NCBI GenBank assembly: GCA_035250975.1
Contig: DATFEP010000014.1
Coordinates: 44,646-108,645 of the forward strand
Source of the DNA: Nitrososphaeraceae archaeon
Lineage (GTDB): Archaea > Thermoproteota > Nitrososphaeria > Nitrososphaerales > Nitrososphaeraceae
Direction: 5' to 3'
DNA: 64,000 nt
Shown here: positions 42,260 through 62,655 of the stretch, one piece after another
How the letters are laid out: each line of letters starts with the position of its first letter
Numbering within the stretch: the first letter of the stretch is position 1
Made by a program: the position numbers and the translations under genes
The notes under the pieces: model-generated
What the model saw: only the letters and a program-made list of their open reading frames with translations
Database searches by the model: none
What the model was told of the DNA's origin: nothing

Positions 42260-44068
42260 ATGAAAAAATTCAGGACGTCATATTTTGTATCTATTTTAAC
42301 GGCATTTGTGGTTTCATTAGGTTACATGATGCCAGGTACTGTTCTTGCACAGAATGATAATCGTCCAAACATATTGGTAATAATGGGAGATGATTTTGGT
42401 TTTTCTGATATAGGTATATTTGGAAGTGAGATTTCTACGCCTAATTTAGATCAATTGGGAAAGGAAGGAAAAATCTTGACCAATTATTATACACATCCAG
42501 TATGTTCTCCAGCAAGAAGTACTTTTCTTACTGGCGTTGATAATCATATAGCTGGCATCGGTACTATGTTTGAAAACATTGCTCCCAATCAGGTGAATAA
42601 AACAGGCTACGAAACTTATATTACTGATAGAGTTGTCACGGTTGCAGAGCTACTACGGGATGCGGGTTATGATACACTTCTTTCAGGTAAATGGCATCTT
42701 TCAGGAAAGGGGTATCATAATGGTACTGGACCAGCAGACAGAGGATTTGATCAGAGCTTTACGTTACTTGAATCTGGAGCCAATCATTTCACGTATGGAC
42801 CATACTATCCTGGCGGTGTTACTACTTTCATAGATAATGACAAAATAGTTGAAAAACCAAATGGTACTCAGTTTTCAAATGAATTTTACACAGATAAAAT
42901 GATCGATTTTATCAAGAAATCAAAAGAGAACAATAAACCGTTTTTCGGATATCTTGCATTTCAGGTAGCACATACACCATTCCAGGCTCCACAGGAAAAC
43001 ATAAAGAAATATGAGGGAGTTTACGATGGTGGATGGGATAAAATAAGAGAACAAAGGTTTGAAAAGCAAAAAGAACTAGGAATATGGCCTACAGATATGA
43101 CATTACCAAAAAGCTATCCAACTTTTCCAGATTGGAATGCATTGCCTATGGATGAACAAAAACAAAGATCACAGATATTTGCAGCACATGCAGGCATGAT
43201 AGAGGACATGGACTATAATATAGGCAGGGTAATTCAATTCCTCAAAGATACAGGTCAATATGAAAATACTTTCATCATGTTTACTTCAGACAACGGTGGT
43301 AGTGAGCCATCTGATTCTCCTGTGGTAGTTGGAACCTTAGAGGGTGCAAATGATAAGGAATTAGAGGAATTTAAAGCAGGAGGGTTCAGCGAAACCTTTG
43401 ATGCCATAGGCGGCAAAGACTCCTATTGGGGATATGGCTGGCAGGGAGCCGTTATGTCAAATACTCCATATTCTGGAGTTAAATCAACTAAGTTCAATGG
43501 AGGAATAAAACCAGCATTTGTAATAAAGGAACCACATGCAACAAATACACCTGAACTTGATATTGTAAAGGAATTTGTTCATGTCAGCGATATGACTCCT
43601 ACATTTCTAGAATATGCAAATACTATACATCCTGGTTCAGAGTATAAAGGAAAACAAGTCAGTCCAATGATGGGAAAATCCATAAAACCACTCTTAGAAG
43701 GTACGGTTGAACAGGTACATAGGGATGATGAAACAATATCCTCAGAGATGTTTGGTAACCGTGCCGTATTCATGGGAGACTGGAAGGCACGTAATAATAT
43801 ATTTCCAATAGGAGATGGACAATGGAAGCTATTTAACATAAAACAAGATATTCGTGAAGCAACAGATTTGTCAAAAGAACATCCCGATATACTTGAAAAG
43901 ATGGTTTCTGCCTATGACAACTATGCAAAGGAAGTTGGAATTATACCACCAAAATATAGTGAACAACAAAAGCAAGGAGTAATGGAAATGTTAGCGGCGA
44001 CCAACCAAACAGAATTTACAGGGTTCCCAATGGAGAAGTTATTAGCAGGCTACCCAGCGGAACCGTGA
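42260..44068 (+). CDS. atsA: secreted arylsulfatase (Cys-type, formylglycine-dependent)
   Basis: signal peptide; PNILVIMGDDFGFSD, CSPAR, SGKWHL, FTSDNGG, W.LFNI.QDI.E. Confidence 0.92.
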   Translation: MKKFRTSYFVSILTAFVVSLGYMMPGTVLAQNDNRPNILVIMGDDFGFSDIGIFGSEISTPNLDQLGKEGKILTNYYTHPVCSPARSTFLTGVDNHIAGIGTMFENIAPNQVNKTGYETYITDRVVTVAELLRDAGYDTLLSGKWHLSGKGYHNGTGPADRGFDQSFTLLESGANHFTYGPYYPGGVTTFIDNDKIVEKPNGTQFSNEFYTDKMIDFIKKSKENNKPFFGYLAFQVAHTPFQAPQENIKKYEGVYDGGWDKIREQRFEKQKELGIWPTDMTLPKSYPTFPDWNALPMDEQKQRSQIFAAHAGMIEDMDYNIGRVIQFLKDTGQYENTFIMFTSDNGGSEPSDSPVVVGTLEGANDKELEEFKAGGFSETFDAIGGKDSYWGYGWQGAVMSNTPYSGVKSTKFNGGIKPAFVIKEPHATNTPELDIVKEFVHVSDMTPTFLEYANTIHPGSEYKGKQVSPMMGKSIKPLLEGTVEQVHRDDETISSEMFGNRAVFMGDWKARNNIFPIGDGQWKLFNIKQDIREATDLSKEHPDILEKMVSAYDNYAKEVGIIPPKYSEQQKQGVMEMLAATNQTEFTGFPMEKLLAGYPAEP

Positions 44069-44702
44069 AACTAGAAAGCAGGAACAAATTAAAATGGTTC
44101 TGGAAACGATATATTGAAAGTAGCTCTGGCATGGATTTTTTTGATTGTAACGAGCGAATTGATACAGTGCTGGATTTCAATTCGAAAGAAAATACTATAA
44201 ATTTAAATTGTGAAAATATATAGATCGAGTTCTTTGATCGATATTTGATAGATTAGAAAAAAATGGAAAAAGTTGTAAAAATATTAATACCCTTCTTTAT
44301 TGATTTTAACATTAAATTATAAAGTTATTTATTCAAATCTTTTAAGTTATTCGAGATTAAATCTATAACTCATTCACAAAAAAAGAATATGTAAAAGATA
44401 CAATTCATATGAATAACTGTGAATGGAGAGGTAATATGTTGGATATGGATGAAAAAGTTCATGGGTTTGAAAAATAGAATTAAGATGGATATTGTAATTT
44501 ATTTCAGTTTATTCATCATAATACAAGAAAGCAGGGATTTACGGAAATTCATTGCTATCAGGTGCGAACCATTCAGAAAATAGAGGAATCAGTTCTTATG
44601 AATATACAGAAAAATTTGACTCTTCTTCGTACCCTAAATTTGATAGATAAAAAAATTTCTAAAAATATTAATAATTTTGGTATGTATTCATATCAGGAGA
44701 AA

Positions 44703-45149
44703 ATGAATCATCAATATAATTTAAATATAATTTTATTAGTAATGATTAGCATTAGTGGTATATTTTTAGCTTTTCCTCTATTCGAAAATATATATACAAA
44801 AGATGATTCTGACGATTCTACCAAACAGAAAGATATTGATAAAAATGAATCAGAAAACAACAATATAATTCCTAATCAATATATTATATATCTCAATGAT
44901 AATAAACAAGGTAGCAATACTATTGACCCAATTGAATTTTTTAATTCTGAATTGAAAGATACTGGAACAGAACTATTACATGTGTACGATAATGTTGCAA
45001 AAGGATTTGCAATAAAAGTTCCTAACGAAAAAGTTCTAGAAAAACTGAAAGATAATCCATCTGTGAAATATATAGGACAAGATAAAAGAACAGAAGCTTT
45101 TACAAATTCAGACAGCGATGAACAGAAAATAACAATAAAAGTAAATTAA
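44703..45149 (+). CDS. stand-alone peptidase inhibitor I9 (subtilase propeptide-like) protein
   Basis: TM/signal; IPNQYIIYL, HVYDNVAKGFAI, L.DNPSVKYI.QD; no catalytic S8 domain follows. Confidence 0.8.
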   Translation: MNHQYNLNIILLVMISISGIFLAFPLFENIYTKDDSDDSTKQKDIDKNESENNNIIPNQYIIYLNDNKQGSNTIDPIEFFNSELKDTGTELLHVYDNVAKGFAIKVPNEKVLEKLKDNPSVKYIGQDKRTEAFTNSDSDEQKITIKVN

Positions 45150-45919
45150 TGACAATATATTACTATCTAATATATTGATAATATCACTTGGTATGTGTTA
45201 TACGGATCTTCGAACAGACACTATTAAAAGCTATATTAACGGTTGAGGTTATTGATTTTAATAATTAGTATGTACAACCCTATTCCGTCAAATTTTTTGT
45301 ATTATTTTTTCTTAATTCTCTTTTCTCTTTATAACATTTTTCTTTTTGTTGTTTCCTGCATTCAATCTTATATTTTGAGCTGATTGACTTTTATTTGTTA
45401 TATTTGCAGAAAAGCAAATAAACAACATATTGCGCAGAAAAAATTTCTATAACCTTTTTTGTATTTGTACCTGCTTGACCTCTAATATAATACAGTGGAA
45501 ATAAATAACCTGGACCTATGAGTAAATAAAACTCTCTAGATTGGATTTATATGCTCACAATCTATCTACCTAAGATTTCCTTCACTTTCATATTCAAATT
45601 TTAAATATCCTTAACAGTTTTATACTTCTCTAGGTCTTCCGACAGACATTCAAGATAAGTTTCAAGGTCTATCGGTACCGGAAGAAGAATGAAATATATT
45701 TAAAAACGAACTTCTTGTTGGACCCATTTATACATTTAAAAAATAAATATGCTCACGTCTTTCGAGAAAAAGATTCAATCTGAATATTAGACACTATCTG
45801 TTAGGAGATGTCAACCAAGATGTGCTACGCGGCCCAGCTTTTTTTAATATGTGAGAAAACGGACATATCAGCCTACAACAAAAAACTTAAGACTAACTAT
45901 AAAACTCATATATTAAAGC

Positions 45920-47320
45920 ATGGGCCAAGATCCCAACTCAATCAAGGTTTTCATTAGTTATTCTCATGAGGATAGTGAAAAAGCCAAACGTCTTTATTCA
46001 AAATTAAAGGAGTGGAACGTAGATCCTTGGTTTGATCAGGAATCGCTTAGAGCAGGTGAGAAATGGGAGGTAAAGATAAAGGAAGCAATCAAAAATAGTC
46101 AGTATTTTATACCAGTATTATCCAAAAATTCGACAGAGGAAACAGGATACGTATTAAAAGAGTTAAATGATGCCATAAAAATTCTTAAAGAACTTCCGGA
46201 CTCTAAGATCTATATAATACCTATACGTGTCGATGATTGCCAAGTACTAGAATCAACAGTTGAAGAACTTCAAAAAATTCAAGAACTTCATATTGTTGAC
46301 CTCTTTCCAGATGAAGAATGGAATAAAGGGTTTCAGAAAATATTGGATGCAATGGGAATTGAAGATAAACCAGATAAATTAGGTAAGGAATACTGGGAAA
46401 GTTTACTGACTGATATCGATAAAAAAGAATGTATTCCAGTCATAGGGGATGGATCGCTGGAATCCTATGATCGACAGGACGATGAAGCCTTTCTCACAAC
46501 TAAAGAAATCGCCTTGGAATTGGCAGAAAAAAATGACTACCCTTTGGATGATCCCTCTCAGTTATCGAAGGTTACTCAATATTTAGCAATACGTGAAAAT
46601 AATGAAATGTATCCAAAAAATGTAGTTAGTAATATGCTCGGTCGTTTAAAACCTCCCGATTTTGCAAATAAATATAGAAGATCTCTTCATGCAGTCCTTA
46701 CCAAGTTAAATTTGCCAATATACATTACTACCACTTACGATCTCTTCATGGAAGAAGCCTTGAAGAGTGATGGAAAGGAGCCTCACAGTGAGTGTTGTCG
46801 CTGGAATGATGACTTGCGTAAGTTGACAACATATGGAGGTTTTCCTTCCGTGTTTGATAAAAAATCAGGATATAAGATACCTACAGAAAAGGATCCACTA
46901 GTATATCATCTTCATGGGTCCATCGAGTATCCTAATTCCATGGTTTTGACCGAACGAGATTATTTCGATTTTGTTATTAATATGAATAAAATAGAAGATG
47001 AAAAAGTAATGCTACCATCGGTTCTTAGAACTAAAATAACACAATCTACACTATTATTTCTTGGATATCGCTTAGATGATATAGATTTTCGTTCAATATT
47101 TCAAGGAGCACTCAGCTTTTATGCAAGTACACGTGGTATGAAAAATAATTTTGTAATAATACAGCTTCCAGATATCGATGATTACGGTAAAAGAAAAAAG
47201 GTAATACAGTATTTAAGAGACAAATCTAAAAATATGTTTCATTTAATTGTTTACTGGGGAAGTATTGATGAATTTGTAGAAGAATTATTGAAAAATTGGG
47301 AAAAATTTAAAAATGGATAG
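45920..47320 (+). CDS. TIR domain + SIR2-like (SIR2_2) domain protein
   Basis: VFISYSHED..WFDQESLRAGEKW..KEL (TIR); CIPVIGDGS, YITTTYD, VYHLHGS, VLTERDY, LLFLGYRLDD.DF (SIR2). Confidence 0.88.
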   Translation: MGQDPNSIKVFISYSHEDSEKAKRLYSKLKEWNVDPWFDQESLRAGEKWEVKIKEAIKNSQYFIPVLSKNSTEETGYVLKELNDAIKILKELPDSKIYIIPIRVDDCQVLESTVEELQKIQELHIVDLFPDEEWNKGFQKILDAMGIEDKPDKLGKEYWESLLTDIDKKECIPVIGDGSLESYDRQDDEAFLTTKEIALELAEKNDYPLDDPSQLSKVTQYLAIRENNEMYPKNVVSNMLGRLKPPDFANKYRRSLHAVLTKLNLPIYITTTYDLFMEEALKSDGKEPHSECCRWNDDLRKLTTYGGFPSVFDKKSGYKIPTEKDPLVYHLHGSIEYPNSMVLTERDYFDFVINMNKIEDEKVMLPSVLRTKITQSTLLFLGYRLDDIDFRSIFQGALSFYASTRGMKNNFVIIQLPDIDDYGKRKKVIQYLRDKSKNMFHLIVYWGSIDEFVEELLKNWEKFKNG

Positions 47321-50300
47321 CTCTGGAGAATCATCCCAATCTTCCAATGGAGAGAACAAAAATTATTATGAACCTTACATAGGACCCCGCGCTTTCGGTA
47401 GAACTGAGGATGATGAGGAACGATTCTTTGGAAGAGACGAGGAAACTCAAGAGATTGTTGCTCTTATTTCTTCTCATAAGCTCGTTTTGATTTATGCCCA
47501 ATCAGGGGCAGGAAAGACATCCATAATGAATGCTGAGGTTATTCCAACTTTAGAAAGATATGGATTTATGGTTCTTCCAGTGACCAGAGTGAGAGTTTCT
47601 TCCGATATTGTTTATGACCAGTCATCATATGATAATTCGATATATAAGACACAAATATCAAATGTTTATATTTTTAATGCTCTTACAAGTCTCAAATCAG
47701 ATACAGACCCGCAATTATTCAAGAATAAAACATTATCTGAATTTTTAAAAGAATATTTCCCTTCTAACAAAGAAAAGAATGGAAAGAACCGTCCACAAGT
47801 ATTAATATTTGACCAGCTCGAAGAAATTTTTAGCATTTTTCCAAAGAATTGGAAAGAGCAAAGAGAAGATTTCTTTAACCAAGTAACAAATGCCTTGAAT
47901 GATATTATTCCACTTCAAGTTGTATTTATTATTAGAGAAGACTATTTAGCTCAATTAGATACTTATAGGGATCTCCTTCCTGAAAAATTGAGACCACGTT
48001 TTAGACTCGAACGACTGAATCAAGATTCGGCTTTATCAGCAGTTCAAGGTCCATTAAAAAAAATTCCAAAAGATTTCATGAAAGAAAAAAAAGAGGATGT
48101 GGAAAGAGAAATAAAAAGATTAATCAAAGAGTTGATGAAAATTCAAGTTGAAGATTCACTAGGTAGGACACATCAGGTAGAAGGTGAATTTATAGAACCA
48201 ATACAGCTACAGGTTGTTTTTAGGAGATGGTGGAAAAACAAACAAAGCCTTCATGACAAAAATAACGAAGACAAAATGGTTGATATATTTGAAGTAGATA
48301 AAGCGTTGGAAGATTTCTATGATGAAGCCATTCATCAATGTCTTCAAACTGGAACATCTGAGGATGAAATTAGAAAATGGTGTGAAGAAAAATTAATTAC
48401 TTCTAGTGGAACTCGTAGTATTGTTCATCGAGGTTTACAGGATACTGAAGACTTGAAAAATAACGTCATCGAAATTCTTGAAAATAAATATTATTTGATT
48501 AGGGGAGAATGGCGTGCTGGAGCAAAATGGTATGAACTTGCACATGATCGATTAATTAATCCAATAAAATCATCAAATCAGAGATGGAGAAGAGAGCAGG
48601 AATTAAAAAAGAGATCCACGATTAAAAAAGTTGCTATACCATCAATAATAACAGCTGTTATGATAGGCATAGCTCTTTCTATGTATTTTGCACCTATTCA
48701 GTATGATATAAATTCCTTTGAGGATATTAAGTTGAGTGAAACTCCATACATACTGGCTGTGAATTCAGGTACTGGAGCTGTATATGCTTCTAATGCTCCT
48801 GATACTAACATAACTGTGATAGATGGAGAAAGTGACAAAGTTACTAAATATATTCAGGTAAAATATAAACCGTTCGACATAGAAGTTGATCCGAAGAGGG
48901 ATACATTATATGTGACACATCCAGAGAGCGATAAAATATCTGTTATAGATTTGAAAAAAGACCAGGACAATTTTAAATACCTAGACTCCAAGGGACGTCC
49001 TTCTTTTATGGGGTTAGATTCTAATAATTCCCTATTATACGTAACTAACTTTGCAGGTAGCACTGTGTCTGTTATTAATTTAACTACAAACAATGTGCAG
49101 GATACTGTGAAGGTGGGAAGAAATCCTATGGGCATAGACATAGATTCCGGGACGGCATATGTAACTAATTCTAGGGATAACACTGTGTCTGTTATAGATT
49201 TAACTACAAACAATGTGCAGGATACTGTGAAGGTGGGAAGAAATCCTACAGATATAGAGATAGATTCGGGTAAGGCATATGTAACTAATTGGATAGACAA
49301 TACTGTGTCTGTTATAGATTTAACTATAAATAAGGTTCAACATACTGTGAATGTGGGAAGAAATCCTACAGATATAGAGATCAATCCTTCTTCTAGTAAG
49401 GTATTTGTAGCTCATTCTGGAGACACAATCGTGTCTGTTATAGATCCACAATTAGATATCGTAGTGGGAACATTGAAAGTAGGCGAAGGAAAGCGACCCA
49501 TTGCATTAGGAATAAATTCAGTTCAAAATATATTATATGTAGCTCGTCATAACGATAACTTCATAAGAGCTATAGACATGAAGGACCATCCGTCAACAGA
49601 AGTTTTGTCCAATATCCCAGTAGCCACTCACCCTTCTGGAATAGCAATTGCGACATCTCAAGATAATAAAACCAAAACGGTATACGTAACTAACAAAGGC
49701 TCCAATAGTGTAAGTATCATAGATGGAATTACAAACATGGTTAAAAAAGTTCTTCAGGTTGGACAAGAGCCCAGCGATATAGATATTAATTCTAACACTA
49801 AAAAATTATATGTGTCTAATTCACTTTCAAACAGTATATCTGTTATAGACATAGGCAAGGAAGAAGTTGAGTATACGATAGATTCCATCGGTAAAAGCCC
49901 AATCAAACTAGCAGTTGACGATAATAAAGATTTAATATATGTGATTAACAACGGCTCTAACAACGTATCTGTTATAAATGGAACTACAAGAGAAGTTATA
50001 GGAGATATAAAAGTGAAAGATATGCCTACAGATATTGTTGTCGATTCCAATAATCATCTAGTATATGTAACTAATTCTGATAATTCTTCTTCTTCTGTAT
50101 CTGTTATAAATGGAACTACAAGAGAAGTTATCGGAGACATACCTATGAATCCTAATAATACAAAATCTGTTGGAGATAAACCTACAGATATTCTTGTTGA
50201 TTCAAAGGACAAGCGAGCATATATAGTTACGCAGGATGGTAAAATCGTCAAGCTAGAAACGCAAAAAATTACAGATAAGAATAGCCAGTTTAACTATAAT

Positions 50301-50450
50301 ATAACGGATTATGTTACAATTGTTGCCGATAATTTTGGTAAACTTCCTGGTTTGGATTTAAATTCGGAAATCGCTTTAAATTCAGAATCTGATGAAATTT
50401 ATATCACTAGTATGGAAAAGAATGTTATGTACATTCTTCATACGAAGTAA
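47313..50450 (+). CDS. STAND (nSTAND1-like) P-loop ATPase + single TM + YVTN/YncE beta-propeller
   Basis: PYIGPRAF..FFGRDEE, Walker A YAQSGAGKTS, Walker B VLIFDQLEE, IREDY, PIQLQVV, YELAHDRL; TM VAIPSIITAVMIGIALSMYF; about 13-14 YVTN..VSVID blades. Confidence 0.9.
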   Translation: MDSSGESSQSSNGENKNYYEPYIGPRAFGRTEDDEERFFGRDEETQEIVALISSHKLVLIYAQSGAGKTSIMNAEVIPTLERYGFMVLPVTRVRVSSDIVYDQSSYDNSIYKTQISNVYIFNALTSLKSDTDPQLFKNKTLSEFLKEYFPSNKEKNGKNRPQVLIFDQLEEIFSIFPKNWKEQREDFFNQVTNALNDIIPLQVVFIIREDYLAQLDTYRDLLPEKLRPRFRLERLNQDSALSAVQGPLKKIPKDFMKEKKEDVEREIKRLIKELMKIQVEDSLGRTHQVEGEFIEPIQLQVVFRRWWKNKQSLHDKNNEDKMVDIFEVDKALEDFYDEAIHQCLQTGTSEDEIRKWCEEKLITSSGTRSIVHRGLQDTEDLKNNVIEILENKYYLIRGEWRAGAKWYELAHDRLINPIKSSNQRWRREQELKKRSTIKKVAIPSIITAVMIGIALSMYFAPIQYDINSFEDIKLSETPYILAVNSGTGAVYASNAPDTNITVIDGESDKVTKYIQVKYKPFDIEVDPKRDTLYVTHPESDKISVIDLKKDQDNFKYLDSKGRPSFMGLDSNNSLLYVTNFAGSTVSVINLTTNNVQDTVKVGRNPMGIDIDSGTAYVTNSRDNTVSVIDLTTNNVQDTVKVGRNPTDIEIDSGKAYVTNWIDNTVSVIDLTINKVQHTVNVGRNPTDIEINPSSSKVFVAHSGDTIVSVIDPQLDIVVGTLKVGEGKRPIALGINSVQNILYVARHNDNFIRAIDMKDHPSTEVLSNIPVATHPSGIAIATSQDNKTKTVYVTNKGSNSVSIIDGITNMVKKVLQVGQEPSDIDINSNTKKLYVSNSLSNSISVIDIGKEEVEYTIDSIGKSPIKLAVDDNKDLIYVINNGSNNVSVINGTTREVIGDIKVKDMPTDIVVDSNNHLVYVTNSDNSSSSVSVINGTTREVIGDIPMNPNNTKSVGDKPTDILVDSKDKRAYIVTQDGKIVKLETQKITDKNSQFNYNITDYVTIVADNFGKLPGLDLNSEIALNSESDEIYITSMEKNVMYILHTK
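49041..49390 (+). repeat. three near-identical 120-bp tandem units (40-aa propeller blades)
   Basis: units begin GTAACTAA at 49041, 49161, 49281 and share ACTGTGTCTGTTAT..ATTTAACTA..GTGGGAAGAAATCCTA. Confidence 0.9.
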
Positions 50451-50669
50451 TAACTAGTGCAAGGTTTAAAGAGTGAAAGATCAAGTGTATATTGGGCACC
50501 GTAGATATAAAATATCTAATAATATACTGCATATATAAAAAAGTAAATATGTAAACATATTAACAAAATTTTCACTTTGATTTATAGGTTGTCAATAAAT
50601 AAATAAATTCATTATGTAAAGTGTCTATAATGATCATGACATAGTCTTCTATCCTAAATTTGGCAGTTA

Positions 50670-51489
50670 GCGAGTAAGCATTTAACTGTAGTAGACACAG
50701 ATAGATCCTTTTTTTCATACCTTGTAAATAATTTCCTGAACCTATTATGCCATGAATTCGTTCTCTCCACGTGTCATCTTCTTGTAGGACGTCTGTTATT
50801 ATTGAGTTTTTTTTCTTCTCTTATGCGTTGTATATGTAAATATATTCTCATTTGACAATTGTTCTGTTTTTTGAATCGTGTGTTTTATAAAGAGACATGG
50901 TTGCTTTTTCATCTTCCTGTTTGTATATTTCGTTGTTGATTTTGAAAAAGGTCTTTTGATAACTATGATGTGAAATTGCAGCAGTAATGTCATGAGAATT
51001 TGGAGATGTTACAACAGTAGAACGTGTGATACCTTGCTTACGTGTTAAAATATGTCTTTACGTTTTAAACCTTCTTCTATCAACAGGATCATGTCAGGTA
51101 ATCGCCTTTCAAATGTCATTTTACTGATATCTTTCAAGAGACTGCCATTTCCAAGTTATTCACTGTTTATTAAGAATACCAAGTTGACTCTCTTGCCGAA
51201 ATCTTCCGGACATGTTGAACCAGAACCATATCCTTCCGGTACCATATATTTTTCATCAACATCCAGTCCTCAGGAGAATTATGATACCATCAATTAGTTT
51301 TCCCTACGGTAGATTAGGACGGCCTGTGGTGTTATCCGCTTTCTCATCCGGTGCAACATTTTTAATCTCATTTCAAAGATCATCTGCACTACGTGTGCTG
51401 GTTCTAAAGAACTTTTTATTCTTAAACAAACATTACCAGATACAACAAGAAACCAACAAGCCACTTCGTATCTCTTTTTGGGTAGGCTC
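50670..51489 (-). mobile_element. degenerate IS5-family element (related to 9517-10235)
   Basis: minus-strand GIIILLRTGC..PEGYGSGSTC and VERTNSWHNRFRKLFTRYEKK; element start GAGCCTACCCAAAA on the minus strand. Confidence 0.8.
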
Positions 51490-51605
51490 CAAGTATTTTG
51501 ATATGTACGATTGATACAGTAGAGAATTAATACAGTACATTATCCATAGCAGATTTGCAGATATCTTTAAAAATAAGAATGCAGAATAATATTCTAGACC
51601 CAAAT

Positions 51606-51818
51606 ATGGAAAAAAAATCCCTATTAGCAGTTTTAATTCCCATTATTGCGTTTAACGCTGTAATGGTTTCGCCAGTGTTTGCAATAGATGGACAAGACAA
51701 TAATGTAAGTGAAATGCAGTACTATGGTGGTGGATATTGCTGCTCTATCATAGAGGAGCCAACGTATAATTTACATCCAATGATGATAGTTTCTAGCGTA
51801 TTAGAAGGAAATACATAG
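51606..51818 (+). CDS. small secreted peptide
   Basis: MEKK + hydrophobic core + SPVFA cleavage site; mature part contains YYGGGYCC. Confidence 0.5.
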   Translation: MEKKSLLAVLIPIIAFNAVMVSPVFAIDGQDNNVSEMQYYGGGYCCSIIEEPTYNLHPMMIVSSVLEGNT

Positions 51819-52399
51819 TTACATTAATTCTAATACCGTTTCCAATATTATAAGTAGGAGAATTTTATTTCGTGCTTATATGTAAATTTTTTTTATGTCA
51901 CGTTCAGATCAAGATAATCTAAATATTCATTTATAATAATACAGCACCTATCTAAAAATATTGATAAAGGAAGAATGCAATTTACTTGATATTTTCAAAT
52001 AAAAATATAGAGGCATCTATACAAAGAGGTATATTTTTCGAAACTCATTAATTTGAAGATCGAATATATGGAAATTTTCGGGAAATTATCAGTGAGTGAT
52101 TCTAACGAAACAAATTATTCACCTATGCTTTGAGATAACTATAAAGTATACAAGAATAAAAAAGGTTAGTTGCGCGAGAATTAAAACGTAGCTCCAATAT
52201 CTATTTTTAAATTTTAAGAGAATAAATTTAAAAAAATGTTCAAGAGACCATAGTGTATTTGTGCAATGAAAAATAAGAATCACGGATACTTGTAAAATTA
52301 CTATTTAACTATAGATTCAATCTCCTCTTATCTTCATAAGGTAAAATACTCATAGTAATTTTTCTTACTTTTGTTCGAGATTGTAGTTTTATATCTAAA

Positions 52400-52435
52400 A
52401 ATAAATAATTTTTCGGCGCCGAAAAATTATTTATT
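52400..52435. repeat. 36-bp perfect palindrome
   Basis: AATAAATAATTTTTCGGCGCCGAAAAATTATTTATT equals its own reverse complement. Confidence 0.95.
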
Positions 52436-53020
52436 ATAATGTATAATTGAAATATAAAAAATTCCTTAAAAGTTATGTAAATCCATAGATTAACAATTAA
52501 CTAACATTTACCTTTGTGGCAATCATGTCTGATGTATCTTTAGCTCGGTGTATATCTACAAAATTATCGCTTGGTAAGATGCACTCATCTCATAGAAATC
52601 GCAGATAAAGACGTCAAAAAAAACAGCTGGGTTAACCGAAATATTTGTGTCTTTTCTTAAAATATTTTGGAGTGCATTCCAAAAATTAATCTGCTGAAAA
52701 TAATTGTAATAAATTAAAGATCCTGTATTTCATCGACAGGCATAGGTGATATCACTATTCTTCGATAGAAAGAGCTCTGCCCATGTCAATTCTCTTGAGT
52801 TTGCTATTTTTTGTATGATTTTTTTGTTCTTTTTTCATGTATTTATAGACAGATATTTACTCATACTAAGCTTCTCTTGCTACTGTCTGTCTATCTTTTT
52901 GGCAGGATGTAGTCTCTGTCTCTAAGAGGCTTGTCCTCAAAAGCTCATTTGTGACTAGGCTCAAGACCATAATAATATTAGTAATTAGTGGGAACATTAT
53001 ATTTGGATGTCTGGATTGAT

Positions 53021-54406
53021 TTAATCTATCTTTTTCTGGATTGCTTCTTCTATTTTTTTTGTCCATGGTACAAGTTCATTCCTTTTTTCTCTTGCCTTTC
53101 TTATGGTACGTAAATTTCTCAAGGTAGTTTCACCTTCCCATCTTTCCCTTAAATGAGATAATGCTTTTGAAAGGAAATTAAAAGATGTCTCTTTATTTTT
53201 CGCAAGAATTGCCAGTTCTAATAGAGTGGCATAATCCCAGTAATCAGGCTTACCCTTTGTAATTTTTCGTTCGACAGAATATTTAACCACAGGAATGAGA
53301 TCCATTATTTTTGGATCTGGATTCTTTTTTATCTCCATCAAAGTAACAGCGTTAATCCCGGGATATGTGTCCCTCCAATCACTTTCAAATCCTTTTAGAT
53401 ATGCATCAATAGCTTGATCTAGATATGCATCTGATAAGTAATAGGATTCATTATTGTCTTTGTCATTTCCTTTTTGTCTTTCTTCCTTGTTGTATTCTTT
53501 TTCCCATCTATCTTTATAGACACGACCCAAAATACCATAGGTTTCACTACTAGGTCCTTTTTTTTCTATAAGCGATAACAAAATCCTTTCTGCTTCCTCA
53601 CTATGGCCTGCCCTATTAAGAGCAAAAGCATACTGCTCTTGAACAAGAGTAGTGGAATACAAAGGTTCCGGCATTAAAGTAACAAATTCAGCCATCTCCT
53701 CCCATTCTTCTTTTTTCTTTGCTAATGCTCTGTAAGAAAGAAAGATATCTATTATTACTCCGGCTTCTTGGTTCTTGATATCCTTTAATGATAAAACAAA
53801 ATTTCTCAGATCAATAATATTCTTTTCTCTTCGTATTTGTGCTAACTGTTTCTTTAATTCCTCAGAATAATTTACTCTTTCTCGAAAAACATCAGTTTTT
53901 ATGTGTTGAATATCTGGAAATCCTTCAACTAATTGAAATATGGGGCTATCTGTATTAGGATTTTGTGCTTCAATCAGTCTTCTTTTTAAAATCTCTTTTG
54001 ACTTATTGTTTGCTTGTTGATCAGGTTTGCCTGAATAAGAATCAAGTTTATACGGGATAGCATGAAGAGGAGCTATATCAAATGGTAGTTGTTTTGTTCC
54101 TTCTGCAAACAACAAGACTGTACTATAGGGACGTACTGCATGTCTAACTCCCAATTCATAAAATACATTAGGATTAGCAGTGGTAAGATCTACAACAGCA
54201 TATTCACATAAAATTAATCTTTCAAACATTGGTTTATGAATTACTCCACCTACTTTCTCTTCGTCTGCTCTAATTGGTTTTAGACCTGCCTCTTCAATAG
54301 CTGGAAAAATAAGGTTGTTATAAACAGAATCAAAATCTATCAAAAGCCCACCATTATCAGCCTTTTTACCAAACGGCATGAGAACAAAACATAGTGGGGA
54401 AGACAC
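53021..54406 (-). CDS. DUF4071/MAP3K TRAFs-binding family protein (deoxyribohydrolase-like N-domain + TPR sensor)
   Basis: CFVLMPFG, RADEE..GG.IH..MF, DLTTANPNVFYELGVRHA, Q.AFALNR, ETYGILGRVYKD, YPGINAVTL, DYWDYAT. Confidence 0.88.
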   Translation of the reverse strand: MSSPLCFVLMPFGKKADNGGLLIDFDSVYNNLIFPAIEEAGLKPIRADEEKVGGVIHKPMFERLILCEYAVVDLTTANPNVFYELGVRHAVRPYSTVLLFAEGTKQLPFDIAPLHAIPYKLDSYSGKPDQQANNKSKEILKRRLIEAQNPNTDSPIFQLVEGFPDIQHIKTDVFRERVNYSEELKKQLAQIRREKNIIDLRNFVLSLKDIKNQEAGVIIDIFLSYRALAKKKEEWEEMAEFVTLMPEPLYSTTLVQEQYAFALNRAGHSEEAERILLSLIEKKGPSSETYGILGRVYKDRWEKEYNKEERQKGNDKDNNESYYLSDAYLDQAIDAYLKGFESDWRDTYPGINAVTLMEIKKNPDPKIMDLIPVVKYSVERKITKGKPDYWDYATLLELAILAKNKETSFNFLSKALSHLRERWEGETTLRNLRTIRKAREKRNELVPWTKKIEEAIQKKID

Positions 54407-54727: not shown

Positions 54728-55936
54728 ATGGATCTGAAAAAAATTTTTGTGTCATATAGCAGGGCTGATGGAGGTGATTTTGCGGATCATATCCAAGAAC
54801 ACTATGAAAAAGATGGGCATCAGGTTTTTATTGATTTTTACGATATAAAACCAGGAGAAGACTGGTCAGAGACTATAAGAAATTCAATAACTGAATCTGA
54901 TTTTGTAGCTGTAATTGTAACTCGTTCAGCACTGAGAAGTACAGAAGTGGAAAAAGAAATTTTGGAAGCAAGAAAACAAAATAAGACTATAATCCCATGT
55001 AGATATAAAGGAATCTTGTGGACTGATTTAAAGTGGGATTTGAATAAATTGCAAGGTTTCCAATTTGATAATAAAAATTCTTTGATTAGACAACTCGATG
55101 ACATAATTTTTAGTGAAAATAGATCTGCTATTCCAAGTTTACACGAAGAGAAGGAAGAAGAACTAGGAATTCGTAATCAGGAGTTTAGACGTAAAAAATT
55201 AATAAAAATGATATCTATAACAATTATTTCAATCATTGCAATTACAGGAGTTGTTATTGGAATCGTAGGTTTTACGCCTCAACCTTCACCCGGTACGATA
55301 GATAGTGGGACCAATGGGACCAATAACGAAGCAACAATTCAGCCTGATGTAGATACTTTATTTTCCTCTGCACTCTCATCTTATAAAATAGGGGAATATT
55401 CTGACGCTGTATCTTCTTTTGATAAGGTACTTCAAATAGAGCCAAACAATGTCACAGCTCTATTCTTGAAAGGCTCTTCACTATTTAAAGATGCAAAGTA
55501 TCCTGACGCTGTATCTTCTTTTGATAAAGTAATTAACATCAATGCAAATAATACAGACGCCTTGTTATACAAAGGATTATCCCTTTACAATTTAGAAAAA
55601 TACAATGATGCTATAGCTGAATTTAACAGAATACGTGCCGTAGAACCAACAAACACAGACGCCTTGCTATACAAAGGATTATCTCTTTATAATTTAGTGA
55701 GATACAATGAGGCTATAGCTGAATTTAACAGAGTACTTGCAGTAGAACCAACAAACACAGACGCCTTGCTATACAAAGGATTATCTCTTTACAATTTAGA
55801 GAGATACAATGAAGCAGTTGCATATTATAATAGAGTATTAGAAATAGATCCAAATAACATAAATGCAACAAAAGAAAAAGAGAAAATCCAACAAATCCAA
55901 CAAAAAGAATCAATTATAAATAGCAGCAAAAAATAA
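54728..55936 (+). CDS. TIR domain + single TM + TPR repeat protein
   Basis: IFVSYSRAD..VFID..IKPGEDW..KEI (TIR); RRKKLIK then a ~22-aa hydrophobic helix; 5 TPRs, the last three near-identical at DNA level (102-bp period). Confidence 0.88.
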   Translation: MDLKKIFVSYSRADGGDFADHIQEHYEKDGHQVFIDFYDIKPGEDWSETIRNSITESDFVAVIVTRSALRSTEVEKEILEARKQNKTIIPCRYKGILWTDLKWDLNKLQGFQFDNKNSLIRQLDDIIFSENRSAIPSLHEEKEEELGIRNQEFRRKKLIKMISITIISIIAITGVVIGIVGFTPQPSPGTIDSGTNGTNNEATIQPDVDTLFSSALSSYKIGEYSDAVSSFDKVLQIEPNNVTALFLKGSSLFKDAKYPDAVSSFDKVININANNTDALLYKGLSLYNLEKYNDAIAEFNRIRAVEPTNTDALLYKGLSLYNLVRYNEAIAEFNRVLAVEPTNTDALLYKGLSLYNLERYNEAVAYYNRVLEIDPNNINATKEKEKIQQIQQKESIINSSKK

Positions 55937-56219: not shown

Positions 56220-59200
56220 CTATTGTTTTGCATTATTATTATTCATTATTTTATTAAAAACGCTTAATTCTTTTTCAGTTAATATGTCTGTTAAGTTAGC
56301 ATTTATTTTCAGAGATTTCTCATAATATAACTTGGCCTCATCAGTTTTACCCAGGTTATATAGGATGAATGCCATAGTACTTTGGAAAATGTCGTTATTA
56401 TCAGGATTAGATAAAGCTGCTTTTTCTATAACTGAAAGTGCTTCACCATATCTTTCCAATTCAGCTAAAGCAACGGCTTTCCCGTTTAGTGCACGAAGAT
56501 CTGATGGCCATATAGATAGGACTTTATCATAGTACTGTAGAGCTTCATCATATCTTTGTAGATGATCCAAAACACTGGCTTTGTTATATGTTGCACTAAC
56601 ATCTAATGGCTCAATAGCTAAAATTTTATCATAGTTCTCTAATGCTTCATCATATCTTTTGAGATCTTTTAAAACAAGGGCTTTGCCCTTTAGTGCAAAA
56701 ACATCCTGAAGATCTATAGCTAGGACTTTATCATAGTACTGTAGAGCTTCATCAAATTTTTGTAGACTTTGTAAAACAAGGGCTTTGCCCATTAGTACAC
56801 TAATACGTGTTGGATCTACAGCTAGTGCTTTATGATAGTACTGTAGAGCTTCATCATATCTTTGTAGATCATCTAAAATACTGGCTTTGTTAGAAAGTGC
56901 ATAAACATGTGTTGGATCTACAGCTAGGACTTTATCATAGTACTGTAGAGCTTCATCATATCTTTGTAGATTTTCTAAAACAACGGCTTTGCCATTTAGT
57001 ACACTAATATGTGTTGGATCTATATCTAATGCTTTATCATAGTACTGTAGAGCTTCATCATATCTTTTTAAATGTTGTAAAGCACTGGCTTTGTTATACA
57101 ATGCACTATCATATTTTGGATCAATAGCTAGTGCTTTATCGTAATACTCTAATGCTTCATCATATCTTTGCAGATCTTTTAAAACAACGGCTTTGCCATT
57201 TAGTACACTAGTATGTGTTGGATCTATATCTAATGCTTTATCATAGTACTGTAGAGCTTCATCATATTTTTTTAGCTCTTGTAAAACAACGGCTTTATTA
57301 TACAATGTAGTAACACGTAATGGCTCAATAGCTAAAATTTTGTCATAGTACTCTATAGCTTCATCATATCTTTGCAAATTTTTTAAAGCAAGGGCTTTCC
57401 CATTTAGGATACTGATATCCAATAGATCTATGGCTAGGGCTTTATCATAGTACTCTACAGCTTCATCATATCTCTTTAAATCTGATAAAGCATTGGCTTT
57501 GCCGTTTAGTGCACTAACATCTGATGGTTCTATAGATAGCACTTTATCAAAGTACTCTACAGCTTCATCATATCTCTTTAAATCTTGTAAAAGAGTGGCT
57601 TTATCAATGAGTATCCTAACATCCAATGGTTCTATTGCAAGTACTTTATCATAGTACTGTAGAGCTTCATCATATCTTTGCAAATTTTTTAAAGCATATC
57701 CTTTATCATTTAGTGCACGAGCATTTGATGGTTCTATCGCTAAAATTTTGTCAAAGTACTCTATAGCCTCATCATATTTTTTTAGATCTAGTAAAACAGT
57801 GGCTTTGTTACCCAGTGCATTAAGATATTTTGGATCTATAGATAATATCTTATCAAAGTACTCTATAGCTTCGTCATTTCTTTGCAGATTTTTTAAAACA
57901 GTGGCTTTATCATTTAGGGCATTAACATTTGATGGCTCGATAGCTAAAATTTTGTCAAAGTACTCTATAGCCTCATCATATTTTTTTAGATCTAGTAAAA
58001 CAGTGGCTTTGTTGCCTAATGCATAAATATGTAAAGGCTCTATTTTAAGTACTTTATCATAGTACTCTATAGCCTCATCATATCTTTGCAGGTTTTTTAA
58101 AACAAATCCTTTATCATTTAATGCATAAATATTTGAAGGCTCTATCGCTAAAATTTTATCATAGTTCTCTAAGGCTTCATCATATCTTTTCAGATCTAGT
58201 AAAACATGGGCTTTGTTACCCAGTGCATTAAGATGTTTTGGATCTATAGATAATATCTTATCATAGTTCTCTAAGGCTTCATCATATCTTTTCAAATCTT
58301 TTAAAGCAACGGCTTTATCATTTAGTGCATTAACATTTGAAGGCTCTATTTTAAGTACTTCGTCATAAAACTCTATAGCCTCATCATACCTTTGCAGATT
58401 TTTTAAAATATATCCTTTATCATTTAATGCATTAACATTTGTTGGTTCTATAGCAAGGATTTTATCATAGTTCTCTAAGGCTTCATCATATCTTTGTAAG
58501 AAACCGAAGATAATGGCTCTGTTATGTAATGCATAAATATGTGAAGGCTCTATCGCTAGGACTTTATCAAAGTACTCTATAGCCTCATCATATCTTTGCA
58601 GATTTTTTAAAATATATCCTTTATCATTTAGTGCATAAATATTTGAAGGCTCTATTGAAAGTACTTCGTCATAAAACTCTATAGCCTCATCATATTTTTG
58701 CTGTTCATTAAAAACCATTGCTTTGTTATATAGTGCAAGAACATATGTTGGCTCTATCGCTAGGACTTTATCAAAGTACTCTATAGCCTCATCATATTTT
58801 TTTAGCTCTTGTAAGACTAAACCTTTATTATTTAGTGCATAAATATGTGAAGGCTCTATTTTAAGTACTTTATCAAAGTACTCTATAGCCTCATCATATC
58901 TTTGCAGGTTTTTTAAAGCAAGACCTATGCCATTCAAGGCATTGATATATGTTGGCTCTATCGCTAGGACTTTACCATAGTACTCTATAGCTTCGATATA
59001 TCTTTGTAGATTCTGTAAAATATTGGCTTTGTTATAAAGTGAATTAACATATGTTGGCTCTATCGCTAGGACTTTATCATAATACTCTATAGCTTCATCA
59101 TATCTTTGTAGATTCTGTAAATAAATACCTTTATCATTTAGTGCATTAACATTTGAAGGATCCAGTACAAGTACTTTATCAATATACTCTATAGCTTCAT

Positions 59201-61278: not shown

Positions 61279-62655
61279 TTGTCCGAAAAACCAACAAACT
61301 ATTATACAGCATTATGTTTTGTTGATATGCCATTTGGTAAAAAGATAGATCCCATCAGTGCTGTTGAGATTGATTTTGATCATATATATGAATCAGCTAT
61401 CAAACCAGCAATAGAAGATGCAGGCTTAGAAGCGTTAAGAGGTGATGAAGAAAAAACTGGTGGTATTATTCATACTGCAATGTTTGCTCGGCTTATACTT
61501 GCAGAATTTGTTGTTGCAGATTTAACTCTGGCCAATGCAAATGTGTTTTATGAACTTGGGATTCGTCATGCAGCAAAGCCTTATACCACGGTATCAATTT
61601 ATGCAAATTCCCATCAATTACCTTTTGACGTTACTATGATACGGTCTATTAACTACAAATTAGAGAATGGACGACTAAGTGATAATGAAATAGAGAAGCT
61701 AAGAAAAGAAATAGGAAAGAGACTCACGGAACCAATGCAAGGACAAGCAACAAAAGATAGTCCTTTATTTCAGCTAATTCCTCAATTTCCCGGAATCGAC
61801 TTACCGAATGAAGTAACAGATGCCTTCAAGGATCGAATAAAACATGAAAAGAAATTCCAAGAAAAATTAGACAATGCAAAAAACAACAAGAATTCAAAAG
61901 AGCAAAAGCGTAATGCTCTTTTACAAATTCAACAAGATTTGGGAAATTTAAAAAGGGTTCAACGTAATGTGTTGGTAGATCTTATGTTTTCATTTCGTTC
62001 TGTAGAGTGTTTCGACGAAATGGCACAACTTTGTGAAGAATTTCCTGATAGTCTTAAGAATACCGATATAGTTCGCCAACAATGGGCTTTTGCATTAAAC
62101 AGAAGTATAGACAACCAGCCAAGTAATAGACAAAAGGCTATTTCAATTCTTAAAGACCTGATAAAAGAACATGGTCCTGACCCAGAAACTTTTGGTATTA
62201 TGGGGCGTGTGCACAAAGATCGATATAAGGAATACAAAGAAAAGAAAGACATTCGTGCATCTTCAGCCCTAGATGATGCAATAGACGCATATACAAAAGG
62301 ATTCATGTCCGATCCTCGTAATTATTATCCTGGTATAAACGCTATAACATTACTTATGGAAAAAGGAGATGATGAATCATTTAAAAATGCCAAAGAATTA
62401 ATTCCGTTGGTAAGTTTTGCAGTATCTCGTGTTGGAGGTATCAGTTCTAGTAATTATTGGGATGTAGCAACTATTCTTGAATTATCTTGCATTAACAATG
62501 ACTGGACCATGGCAAAACGTGTACTTCCTAAAGTACTCGATTTGGGTAAAGAATCTTGGATGCTCAAGACTACTTCTGCCAATCTAAATATGCTAAAAAA
62601 AGCTACATCCAGCCAAGACCTAGATGAAATTATAAGATATTTGGACCAAATCTAA
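61279..62655 (+). CDS. DUF4071/MAP3K TRAFs-binding family protein, second paralog
   Basis: CFVDMPFG, RGDEEKTGGIIH, ADLTLANANVFYELGIRHA, QQWAFALNR, ETFGIMGRVHKD, YPGINAITL, NYWDVAT. Confidence 0.88.
   Translation: MSEKPTNYYTALCFVDMPFGKKIDPISAVEIDFDHIYESAIKPAIEDAGLEALRGDEEKTGGIIHTAMFARLILAEFVVADLTLANANVFYELGIRHAAKPYTTVSIYANSHQLPFDVTMIRSINYKLENGRLSDNEIEKLRKEIGKRLTEPMQGQATKDSPLFQLIPQFPGIDLPNEVTDAFKDRIKHEKKFQEKLDNAKNNKNSKEQKRNALLQIQQDLGNLKRVQRNVLVDLMFSFRSVECFDEMAQLCEEFPDSLKNTDIVRQQWAFALNRSIDNQPSNRQKAISILKDLIKEHGPDPETFGIMGRVHKDRYKEYKEKKDIRASSALDDAIDAYTKGFMSDPRNYYPGINAITLLMEKGDDESFKNAKELIPLVSFAVSRVGGISSSNYWDVATILELSCINNDWTMAKRVLPKVLDLGKESWMLKTTSANLNMLKKATSSQDLDEIIRYLDQI

Follow-up and report, generated by a model that had tools for sequence, protein, structure and literature searches.

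The stretch of DNA analysed here, hereafter the window, comprises 64,000 nucleotides of contig DATFEP010000014.1 (contig C44) from the Nitrososphaeraceae archaeon assembly GCA_035250975.1 (2.49 Mb, completeness 94.6%). Within this AT-rich sequence (GC content about 0.27-0.35) lies a unit of two forward-strand genes. The upstream gene encodes a protein with TIR_2 and SIR2_2 domains, hereafter the partner. The downstream gene encodes a STAND protein in which an nSTAND1 NTPase module is joined through a single predicted transmembrane (TM) helix to a double YVTN beta-propeller. Coordinates are collected in Table 1.

The original prediction for this DNA described two open reading frames (ORFs) sharing 8 nt, the second with intact Walker A and B motifs and without an N-terminal effector domain. 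Both ORFs and their overlap are as described, the motifs are present (K68, D167), and only 20 disordered residues precede the NTPase, leaving no N-terminal effector domain on the STAND protein. Contigs of DNA runs from two different studies, at least 95% identical to the window, bridge the gene junction (X3 record 14, 46393-49171, with 42 differences; X2 record 6, 46483-47702, with 9 differences). After nSTAND1 the STAND protein also matches the Pfam YNCE and Lactonase propellers, and it scores 220.5 bits against the YVTN repeat model TIGR02276 (cut-off 27.85). The SIR2_2 (PF13289) match of the partner spans residues 267-421 (87.8 bits against a cut-off of 24.5, E 9.7e-25), and PADLOC models of TIR- and SIR2-bearing defence proteins also match this protein.

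The NTPase module and its SIR2-type partner

With residues 1-470 of the STAND protein as query, 1524 of 8000 scored candidate proteins matched at E <= 1e-5, and a library clustered at 50% identity yielded 18471 representatives at E <= 1e-3, of which 3104 reached E <= 1e-30. Source names from the Nitrososphaeraceae, including Nitrosocosmicus and Nitrosopolaris, are attached to the closest homologues and loci. Residues G65, G67 and K68, as well as D167, Q168 and E170, are invariant in family alignments of the NTPase.

The NTPase was folded separately with AlphaFold2 (AF2), giving a predicted local distance difference test score (pLDDT) of 89.1 and a predicted TM-score (pTM) of 0.86. Structure alignment of this model supported an AAA+-type NOD fold with helical and winged-helix extensions. 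Matches, to be read as ties when within 1 Z unit of each other, included 2qen_A (Z 14.1, root-mean-square deviation 8.2, 280 aligned), ORC/Cdc6 chains (Z 13-14), NRC2 8rfh_A (Z 13.3, root-mean-square deviation 5.5, 290 aligned), NLRP3 (Z 12.3), MalT (8bob_D, Z 11.7), Avs3 and Avs4 (Z 11.3), TPR-STAND 6mfv_A (Z 11.0) and Avs5 (Z 10.9-11.2). By sequence, the NTPase alone matched no PDB chain below E 0.78, and Foldseek returned only generic AAA+/ORC/Apaf-1 matches with TM-scores of 0.3-0.4. PADLOC-DB v2, a library without families named after 2023 (those of PMC13581612 included), gave one marginal match to the NTPase (mad8, E 0.0028).

Conservation of the partner was assessed at 80 loci from bacteria and archaea, where, of the same-strand ORFs that end close to the start of the STAND gene, the largest was taken as the partner. 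An upstream ORF was present for 76 STAND ORFs; 2 of these were another STAND gene, and the remaining 74 were scanned. SIR2_2 was found in 69 of the 74, the other 5 being short ORFs (81-208 aa) without any family. Additional domains were less frequent: TIR at the N-terminus in 4 (L006, L018, L024, L037), CHAT at the N-terminus in 7 (L045, L061, L063, L074, L075, L077, L083) and EAD7 at the C-terminus in 7 (L011, L012, L014, L015, L016, L025, L028). By longest-ORF calling, 51 of the 69 SIR2-STAND pairs overlap, most commonly by 11, 8 or 4 nt. The constant companion of this NTPase clade is a SIR2-fold domain, to which TIR, CHAT and EAD7 are optional additions. The proposed pairing of a TIR-SIR2 effector with a STAND protein therefore holds for the linkage, which is conserved, but not for the TIR domain, which few partners share.

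The EAD7-bearing loci are all from Chloroflexota. Their STAND proteins carry no N-terminal EAD, and the STAND gene has a small gene (108-454 aa) after it; these loci may hold a third, EAD7-recruited component.

The window unit is one of three paralogous pairs in the genome, each consisting of a SIR2 gene, with or without TIR, and an nSTAND1-TM-repeat gene. On contig C32 (locus L004, 5084-8655, minus strand), a SIR2-only gene (302 aa) overlaps an nSTAND1-helix-TPR gene (888 aa) by 4 nt. On contig C54 (locus L005, 4899-9613, plus strand), a TIR-SIR2 gene (464 aa) is followed after a 14-nt gap by an nSTAND1-helix-propeller gene (1101 aa). The nSTAND1 scores of these two paralogues are 91.8 and 88.9 bits. 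At L005 and L006 the STAND gene is followed by one for a 317-aa protein with a hydrophobic segment at its N-terminus, which the window lacks.

Longer proteins with this SIR2 domain were rare (7 among 2004 candidates). Three of them (P0252, P0253, P0254) hold nSTAND1 in the same polypeptide. The other four combine TIR and TPR with the same SIR2 domain, some with a caspase-type (PF00656) or ParA-type (PF13614) domain in addition (43-53% identity). The SIR2-nSTAND1 fusions support a putative functional tie between the two domains, though their order differs from that of the operon. A further candidate fusion, P0155, was rejected: the 418 residues ahead of its NTPase show no SIR2 likeness (hhalign probability 0.2) and no Pfam match.

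An alignment of 61 partners revealed a C-terminal YWG..EF..EL..W motif, with W446, G447, E455, L456 and W460 invariant or nearly so, that ends a few residues ahead of the STAND start codon. In the SIR2 active site, the Asn of TTNYD is kept in 58 of the 61 and the His of HxHG in 59, residues that we take to be essential for catalysis in ThsA. The window SIR2 has Thr in place of this Asn and keeps His330, and both paralogues in the genome keep the Asn. The Thr codon ACT (46733-46735) is one base from an Asn codon. The window's 'tttyd' falls on the 'ttnyd' of its best solved relative, the ThsA-like chain 7uxt_B (E 8.7e-11), and a ThsA structure, 6lhx_A, matches the SIR2 part at E 4.4e-05. In the TIR domain, E81 corresponds to the Glu of 'VLKEL' in TIR-APAZ chains, which is presumably catalytic. 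The window's SIR2 copy may be inactive or weakened; in that copy the TIR may be the likelier NADase and the SIR2 fold a docking part.

Binding of the two proteins was modelled from NTPase residues 1-436 and SIR2 residues 150-466, each with its own alignment. The complex scored 0.39, against 0.00 for the best of 3 controls, and was graded 'weak support'; the runs agreed in at least 74% of contacts, and partner pLDDT was at least 81. In calibration, 58 of 80 solved complexes passed the mark, as did 2 of 110 mismatched pairs; since custom alignments were supplied, these counts apply here only roughly. Passes with scores of at most 0.60 came from only 7 of the 80 solved complexes and from both of those mismatches. 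With the strong genetic linkage as prior, the score lends mild support to binding between NTPase and SIR2.

The predicted membrane helix and the exchangeable sensor

The STAND protein contains one strongly hydrophobic 19-mer, residues 440-458, with a mean Kyte-Doolittle hydropathy over 19 residues (KD19) of 2.02; the next best elsewhere reaches 1.26. Lys and Arg (K/R) number 7 in the preceding 15 residues, KKRSTIKK included, and 1 in the following 15. The two paralogous STAND proteins have such a segment at the same place (KD 2.44 and 2.60), with K/R flanks of 7/1 and 7/0. In the AF2 model of the whole protein (mean pLDDT 80.0, pTM 0.41), the confident NTPase module closes with a long helix at 412-435. 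An isolated helix, 444-457, follows within a low-confidence stretch (434-462, pLDDT below 50) and precedes confident beta-strand propellers. The two propellers (about 465-755 and 774-1045) are separated by a disordered loop at 758-769, and block-mean pLDDT is 82-98 over residues 471-750.

A helix was scored as present in homologues when a hydrophobic segment with KD19 >= 1.8 followed the NTPase. Among the nearest homologues it was present in 117 of 119, at a median gap of 10 residues, and all 117 had a K/R excess on the NTPase side (mean 6.7 versus 0.8). A further 127 representatives comprised 91 with the helix, 29 without and 7 truncated, with the N-side excess in 87 of the 91. At the genomic loci, 65 of 80 evaluable ORFs had the helix and 15 lacked it; the excess lay on the N side in 57 of the 65, was equal in 2 and reversed in 6. 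About three quarters of the sampled clade members carry the helix directly after the NTPase. Its sequence is not conserved, but its hydrophobicity (KD19 2.0-3.2) and position are, and by this pattern the predicted helix behaves as a membrane anchor and not as a packed core helix. We predict the TM segment from hydropathy, charge bias, its conservation across the family and the AF2 model.

P-loop NTPases require cytoplasmic nucleotide. Since the NTPase must then be cytoplasmic, a single helix would place the C-terminal part outside, and an N-in, C-out topology with an outside propeller is most likely. This agrees with the earlier proposal of one TM segment behind KKRSTIKK with the ATPase inside and the propeller outside: one helix is predicted, the positive-inside bias is a feature of the family, and the relatives of the sensor point the same way. 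The best solved match of the sensor's family profile is 1l0q_A, a Methanosarcina 'Surface layer protein' (E 1.4e-56), followed in order by LRP2/4/6 ectodomains, designed Pizza propellers, YncE, hydrazine synthase beta and the PknD sensor 1rwi_B (E 9e-18). Nearly all of the natural solved relatives are extracytoplasmic. Other propeller-matching ORFs in the genome (contigs C19, C72, C12, C15 and C56) have a signal-like N-terminal hydrophobic segment in 5 of 5 cases, with a 15-residue hydropathy mean (KD15) of 2.37-2.73 inside the first 60 residues. Elsewhere in the window, a 1003-aa CopC + CopD protein (20576-23590, minus strand) continues into a Vgb_lyase/SGL-type propeller and is another membrane protein with a propeller beyond its membrane part.

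The region after the helix differs between relatives, and the sensor is therefore a swapped module. Close archaeal homologues have YVTN or NHL propellers, TPR, Big_9 with FHA, or more hydrophobic segments in this position. A domain scan of 39 of 60 post-helix parts of at least 60 aa, taken from other loci, found WD40 in 23, TPR in 3, Amidase_2 (PGRP-type) in 2, FGE-sulfatase in 2, PD40, CBM96 and Peptidase_M4_C in 1 each, and none in 6. Of these, Amidase_2, FGE-sulfatase, PD40, CBM96 and Peptidase_M4_C speak for a place outside the membrane. The expectation that the same pair would recur with a different sensor was thus borne out, within the genome itself by the TPR paralogue and elsewhere by these other domains.

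Two bacterial loci with a TIR-SIR2 partner, L018 and L037, both carry Amidase_2 after the helix (the post-helix part of L024 was not in the scan), which hints at peptidoglycan sensing outside the membrane. Sequence identity also varies along the STAND protein. Homologue P0002 shares 67.4% identity with the window protein over the NTPase part (426 aligned) and 93.5% over the propeller part (587 aligned); other close homologues show the reverse, reaching 54-70% over the NTPase but 39-49% over the propellers. The P0002 pattern suggests a recent exchange of a whole sensor module between receptors. The repeated YVTN blade is 40 aa long, and database protein P0001 is identical to the window STAND save one missing blade (1005 versus 1045 aa). 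In two other DNA runs, contigs end inside the repeated blades (49131-49356). These differences reflect either variation in blade number or assembly collapse.

Genomic setting and proposed mechanism

The pair is patchily distributed. A query of NTPase plus helix matched 6 of 81 sampled genomes of the family, its own included (5 of the 80 others), and 1 of 7 other genomes of the genus; its own genome holds 3 copies. A cluster of conflict-type genes lies downstream (Table 1) and gives the pair an island context; the genes upstream are ordinary (aquaporin, sulfatase, Inhibitor_I9).

We lean, with confidence slightly past even, towards an outside-sensing STAND receptor that activates its SIR2/TIR NADase partner by clustering, the two genes forming a conflict system that is most likely antiviral and of an abortive type. 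This reading starts from the observed domain make-up, linkage, helix with its charge bias, kinship of the sensor to extracytoplasmic propellers, patchiness and island context. The nSTAND1 NTPase would be cytoplasmic, the one helix would run N-in, C-out, and the two YVTN propellers would stand in the cell-envelope space. Receptors would be drawn into clusters on binding an external ligand, probably a multivalent one: either part of a virion or a component of a foreign or damaged envelope. This would drive the NTPase modules in the cytoplasm through the usual STAND step, in which they exchange nucleotide and oligomerise, and the oligomer would activate the co-translated partner through its SIR2-type domain, the constant companion of the clade. 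Destruction of NAD+ would then stop growth or kill the cell. In the window copy, the fused TIR would perhaps do the NADase work and SIR2 serve mainly for docking.

Several results weigh against outside sensing or against the proposed activation of the partner. The original prediction had taken the N-x-S/T sequons of the blades as a sign of an outside location. Their number in the propeller part is at chance level, with 11 sites against 10.05 +/- 2.8 in same-composition shuffles, of which 41.5% reach 11; the NTPase part has 1 against 2.6 expected. Over 109 homologues the observed/expected ratio is 0.80 in the propeller part and 0.87 in the NTPase part. The higher sequon density outside is a matter of N/S/T-rich, R/E-poor composition and nothing more, and we discarded it as a sign of location. 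The helix is lacking in 15 of 80 locus ORFs and in 29 of 120 evaluable representatives. Where examined, these relatives keep the SIR2 partner, so the system as such can do without the helix. Bacterial members show a weaker charge bias, with K/R higher on the C side in 6 of 65 loci. Domain types common in the cytoplasm follow the helix in bacterial relatives (WD40 in 23 of 39, TPR in 3 of 39), and FHA, also common in the cytoplasm, does so in two homologues.

Further objections concern the partner and its control. The NTPase has no PADLOC model beyond the marginal mad8 match and is hence not vouched for by any tested defence system. Thr at the conserved Asn makes the NADase activity of the window SIR2 doubtful. 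The prediction of an NTPase-SIR2 complex passes weakly only, and the three fusions have an order opposite to the operon (NTPase first, SIR2 last) and no helix. Two metatranscriptomic libraries each yielded 2 short contigs inside the genes (e.g. 46255-46687, no differences) and none across the junction. As the RNA pieces are short and DNA carry-over is possible, neither transcription nor co-transcription is shown.

The main rival retains the same machine and differs in its trigger only. Here the outside sensor would detect neighbouring cells, or their secreted or surface molecules, in kin recognition, allorecognition or programmed death within aggregates or filaments. Relatives among the 80 loci are concentrated in filamentous or aggregate-forming groups (Anaerolineae, other Chloroflexota, Methanosarcina, Nitrososphaeraceae). 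The near-identical adjacent blades, the blade-number variant and the whole-sensor exchange recall repeat-driven diversification, as found in fungal NLR allorecognition genes. Kaur et al. link such NTPase conflict systems to a multicellular habit (PMC7159879, PMC8195603). The neighbouring TIR, SLATT and TPR-S genes and the patchiness fit virus and cell sensing alike; defence islands are better documented for antiviral systems. We regard cell sensing as unlikely though credible.

In a second rival, the helix and propellers would serve purely to anchor the NTPase at the membrane or S-layer, and what triggers the system would be detected within the membrane or the cytoplasm, for instance as membrane perturbation on virus entry. 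Helix-less relatives (among the entries listed) keep the SIR2 partner and repeat domains, so triggering can do without an outside domain, and intra-membrane signals are mentioned for TM-bearing NACHT proteins (Kibby et al., bioRxiv 10.1101/2022.07.19.500537). A mere tether is nevertheless improbable: the C-terminal repeat region of STAND proteins is established as the ligand sensor (e.g. PMC6468293), and the post-helix domain is the variable, swapped part, as expected of a sensor and not of a tether.

We give very little credence to a housekeeping role apart from conflict, in which an environmental receptor would regulate metabolism through a SIR2-type protein deacylase or ADP-ribosyltransferase. 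SIR2 folds do include protein deacetylases, and regulatory STAND proteins such as MalT exist, its chain 8bob_D being one of many fold matches. The partner, however, is a Pfam SIR2_2 protein that matches ThsA-type defence models and not classical sirtuin models, and 11 of 74 partners bear TIR or CHAT (caspase-like) additions. Patchy distribution, three divergent paralogous pairs in one genome and a position within an island with TIR and SLATT genes also speak against housekeeping. It is similarly hard to believe that the hydrophobic stretch is no membrane helix and the whole protein cytoplasmic, like characterised Avs and bNACHT sensors: the low AF2 confidence at the helix and the WD40, TPR and FHA domains after the stretch in many relatives would fit, but hydrophobicity and a K/R-rich N flank are kept in place, not in sequence, across hundreds of homologues, the AF2 model shows the stretch flanked by two modules that fold independently, without packing against either, and the sensor's relatives are extracytoplasmic.

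Other features of the locus were surveyed as well. The 2.6 kb after the STAND gene (50451-53020) hold short ORFs only (64-100 aa), and an almost perfect 29-nt palindrome lies at 52389-52446. Rfam gave no family at gathering score in 44000-54000, and a tRNA scan of the window found none. In 45100-53100 the repeat scan found the blade repeat only; long flanking repeats, inverted or direct, of the kind that marks a mobile element were absent.

Table 1. Features of the gene pair and of the genes downstream, in window coordinates
Feature	Position	Strand	Basis or detail
TIR_2 + SIR2_2 gene (effector/partner)	45920..47320	+	466 aa ORF; Pfam; PADLOC matches to TIR and ThsA-type SIR2 models
TIR domain, residues 10-142	45947..46345	+	Pfam TIR_2, 91.4 bits vs cut-off 28, E 7.5e-26
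Candidate catalytic Glu E81 of TIR	46160-46162	+	'VLKEL' aligned to TIR-APAZ 'VLKEL'
SIR2_2-type domain with flanks, residues 150-466	46367..47317	+	Pfam SIR2_2
T272 at family-Asn position of TTNYD	46733-46735	+	Codon ACT
H330 in HLHG of SIR2	46907-46909	+	Partner alignment
8-nt overlap ATGGATAG	47313..47320	+	Holds STAND start codon ATG and partner stop codon TAG
nSTAND1 NTPase - predicted TM - double YVTN propeller gene	47313..50450	+	1045 aa ORF; Pfam, TIGR02276, AF2
nSTAND1 NTPase module, residues 21-416	47373..48560	+	Pfam PF20703, 98.5 bits vs cut-off 27.1
Walker A AQSGAGKTS	47496-47522	+	K68 = 47514-47516
Walker B LIFDQLEE	47799-47825	+	D167 = 47811-47813
K/R-rich juxtamembrane patch KKRSTIKK, residues 432-439	48606..48629	+	K/R counts
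Predicted single TM helix, residues about 440-462	48630..48698	+	KD19 2.02; flank charge; AF2; homologues
First YVTN beta-propeller, residues about 465-755, roughly 7 blades	48705..49577	+	AF2 (29 strands), TIGR02276, 1l0q_A
Tandem repeat of one blade within first propeller	49061..49381	+	Period 120 nt, 2.7 copies, 88% matches
Second YVTN beta-propeller, residues about 774-1045, roughly 6-7 blades	49632..50447	+	AF2 (last blades lower confidence), TIGR02276, PDB profile
TIR-like + MAP3K_TRAF_bd + TPR-S gene	53021-54406	-	Pfam; TIR-like N-terminus by PADLOC
TIR_2 + TPR gene	54728-55936	+	Pfam
904-aa TPR protein	56220-58937	-	Pfam
Second MAP3K_TRAF_bd/TPR-S gene	61279-62655	+	Pfam
SLATT_1/DUF4231 membrane protein gene	63294-63998, runs off window	+	Pfam

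Significance and comparison with known systems

If outside sensing is true, microbes would gain an early-warning arm of immunity that acts at adsorption, in a family of 3104 representative clusters (E <= 1e-30), and the pair would offer a simple model of how clustering can drive a STAND switch by way of one helix. The design occurs widely among bacteria and archaea, and for archaea, where few defence mechanisms have been tested, one ammonia-oxidiser genome supplies three candidate systems. The constant SIR2 partner with swappable TIR and CHAT heads suggests an adaptor role for the SIR2 fold. A broader generalisation, advanced tentatively and well short of even confidence, is that prokaryotes hold a large class of surface pattern-recognition receptors. 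These would be STAND/NLR-type switches split by a membrane helix, whose variable ectodomains sense virions or foreign cells before genome entry and fire cytoplasmic SIR2, TIR or caspase-like effectors by clustering, a Toll-like logic built from NLR parts, with the SIR2-fold partner as universal docking adaptor for grafted TIR or CHAT. Its ectodomains would comprise YVTN, NHL, WD40 and PD40 propellers, TPR, PGRP-like amidase, FGE-sulfatase/lectin-like and carbohydrate-binding modules.

Among known systems, Avs5 (AVAST type 5, e.g. EfAvs5) unites SIR2, STAND and sensor in a single protein. As in the window, a STAND module is combined with a SIR2-type NADase effector and a C-terminal sensor, and activation by oligomerisation or filamentation is the logic expected of the window pair too. 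The Avs5 structures 9jap_A and 9nc9_D match the fold of the window NTPase at Z 10.9-11.2. Unlike Avs5, the window's SIR2 is encoded by a separate, overlapping upstream gene, and the rare fused relatives have SIR2 at the C-terminus; with 20 residues before its NTPase and its effector in another gene, the window STAND lacks the N-terminal effector fusion of Avs proteins. The window NTPase is furthermore a Pfam nSTAND1 without a PADLOC Avs model match, in a library that ends with families named in 2023. A predicted membrane helix also separates it from its sensor, a YVTN propeller of an extracytoplasmic kind.

The nSTAND1 family (PF20703) was named by Kaur, Iyer, Burroughs and Aravind (eLife 2021, PMC8195603), who described conflict systems with variable C-terminal 'antigen-receptor-type' modules, as in the window family, and effectors supplied in trans through EADs. 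FGE-sulfatase in relatives of the window STAND and EAD7 in 7 of 74 partners are shared with those systems. They differ in their FGS sensors and in the fusion of EADs or effectors to the N-terminus of the NTPase, and the accessible portion of that paper makes no mention of a constant SIR2_2 partner or an intervening helix. Several membrane-proximal conflict systems were described by Kaur et al. in 2020 (PMC7159879); the accessible portion shows no SIR2 partner, and the literature index counts zero occurrences of 'SIR2' in that paper.

'TM regions' form one C-terminal class of the bacterial NACHT proteins of Kibby et al. (bioRxiv 10.1101/2022.07.19.500537), and the sensing of intra-membrane or periplasmic signals by some prokaryotic STAND/NLR-like proteins was predicted in the same work. 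The window differs from such TM-bearing NACHT proteins in its single helix after nSTAND1, its large folded ectodomain and its SIR2 partner in trans. Periplasmic placement was also predicted for one target of a diversity-generating retroelement in a STAND system (Dore et al. 2024, PMC10907252). Membranes go unmentioned in the main text of a 2026 survey that covers at least 90 STAND families associated with defence (PMC13581612).

A likeness in layout is seen in PknD, a receptor Ser/Thr kinase of M. tuberculosis whose sensor is among the solved propeller relatives. We take PknD to consist of an N-terminal cytoplasmic nucleotide-using enzyme, one membrane helix and an extracellular beta-propeller, which is the predicted layout of the window STAND. 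The cytoplasmic module of PknD is a kinase, however, and its output is phosphorylation, where the window STAND would oligomerise to activate an effector. Type I Thoeris (ThsB TIR with ThsA SIR2-SLOG) shares the TIR and SIR2_2-type domains, and the best relative of the window SIR2 is ThsA-like. In contrast to Thoeris, the window has no SLOG match in Pfam, carries TIR and SIR2 in one chain and pairs them with an NTPase; NCBIfam Thoeris models score the window partner far below their cut-offs (24.5 versus 220 bits), as do retron-TIR models. Animal Toll-like receptors join an extracellular repeat sensor through a single membrane helix to a cytoplasmic TIR output that is triggered by receptor clustering. 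The resemblance is an analogy only: the ectodomain is not homologous, the window TIR is on a separate protein behind an NTPase switch, and the expected output is NAD+ destruction.

The original prediction had set the pair apart from NLR-like proteins that are cytoplasmic and fused to their effectors. Its novelty is narrower than supposed, as periplasmic sensing (Kibby et al.; PMC10907252) and trans effectors recruited through EADs (PMC8195603) were already in print. The specific SIR2_2 and nSTAND1-TM-sensor pair was not found described in the literature covered, which excludes subscription papers and supplements; the supplements of PMC7159879, PMC8195603, Kibby et al. and PMC13581612 may list it. 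Outside or membrane sensing by STAND proteins is thus known as a prediction, and what appears new is the specific, widespread pairing of SIR2_2 with a predicted nSTAND1-helix-ectodomain protein.

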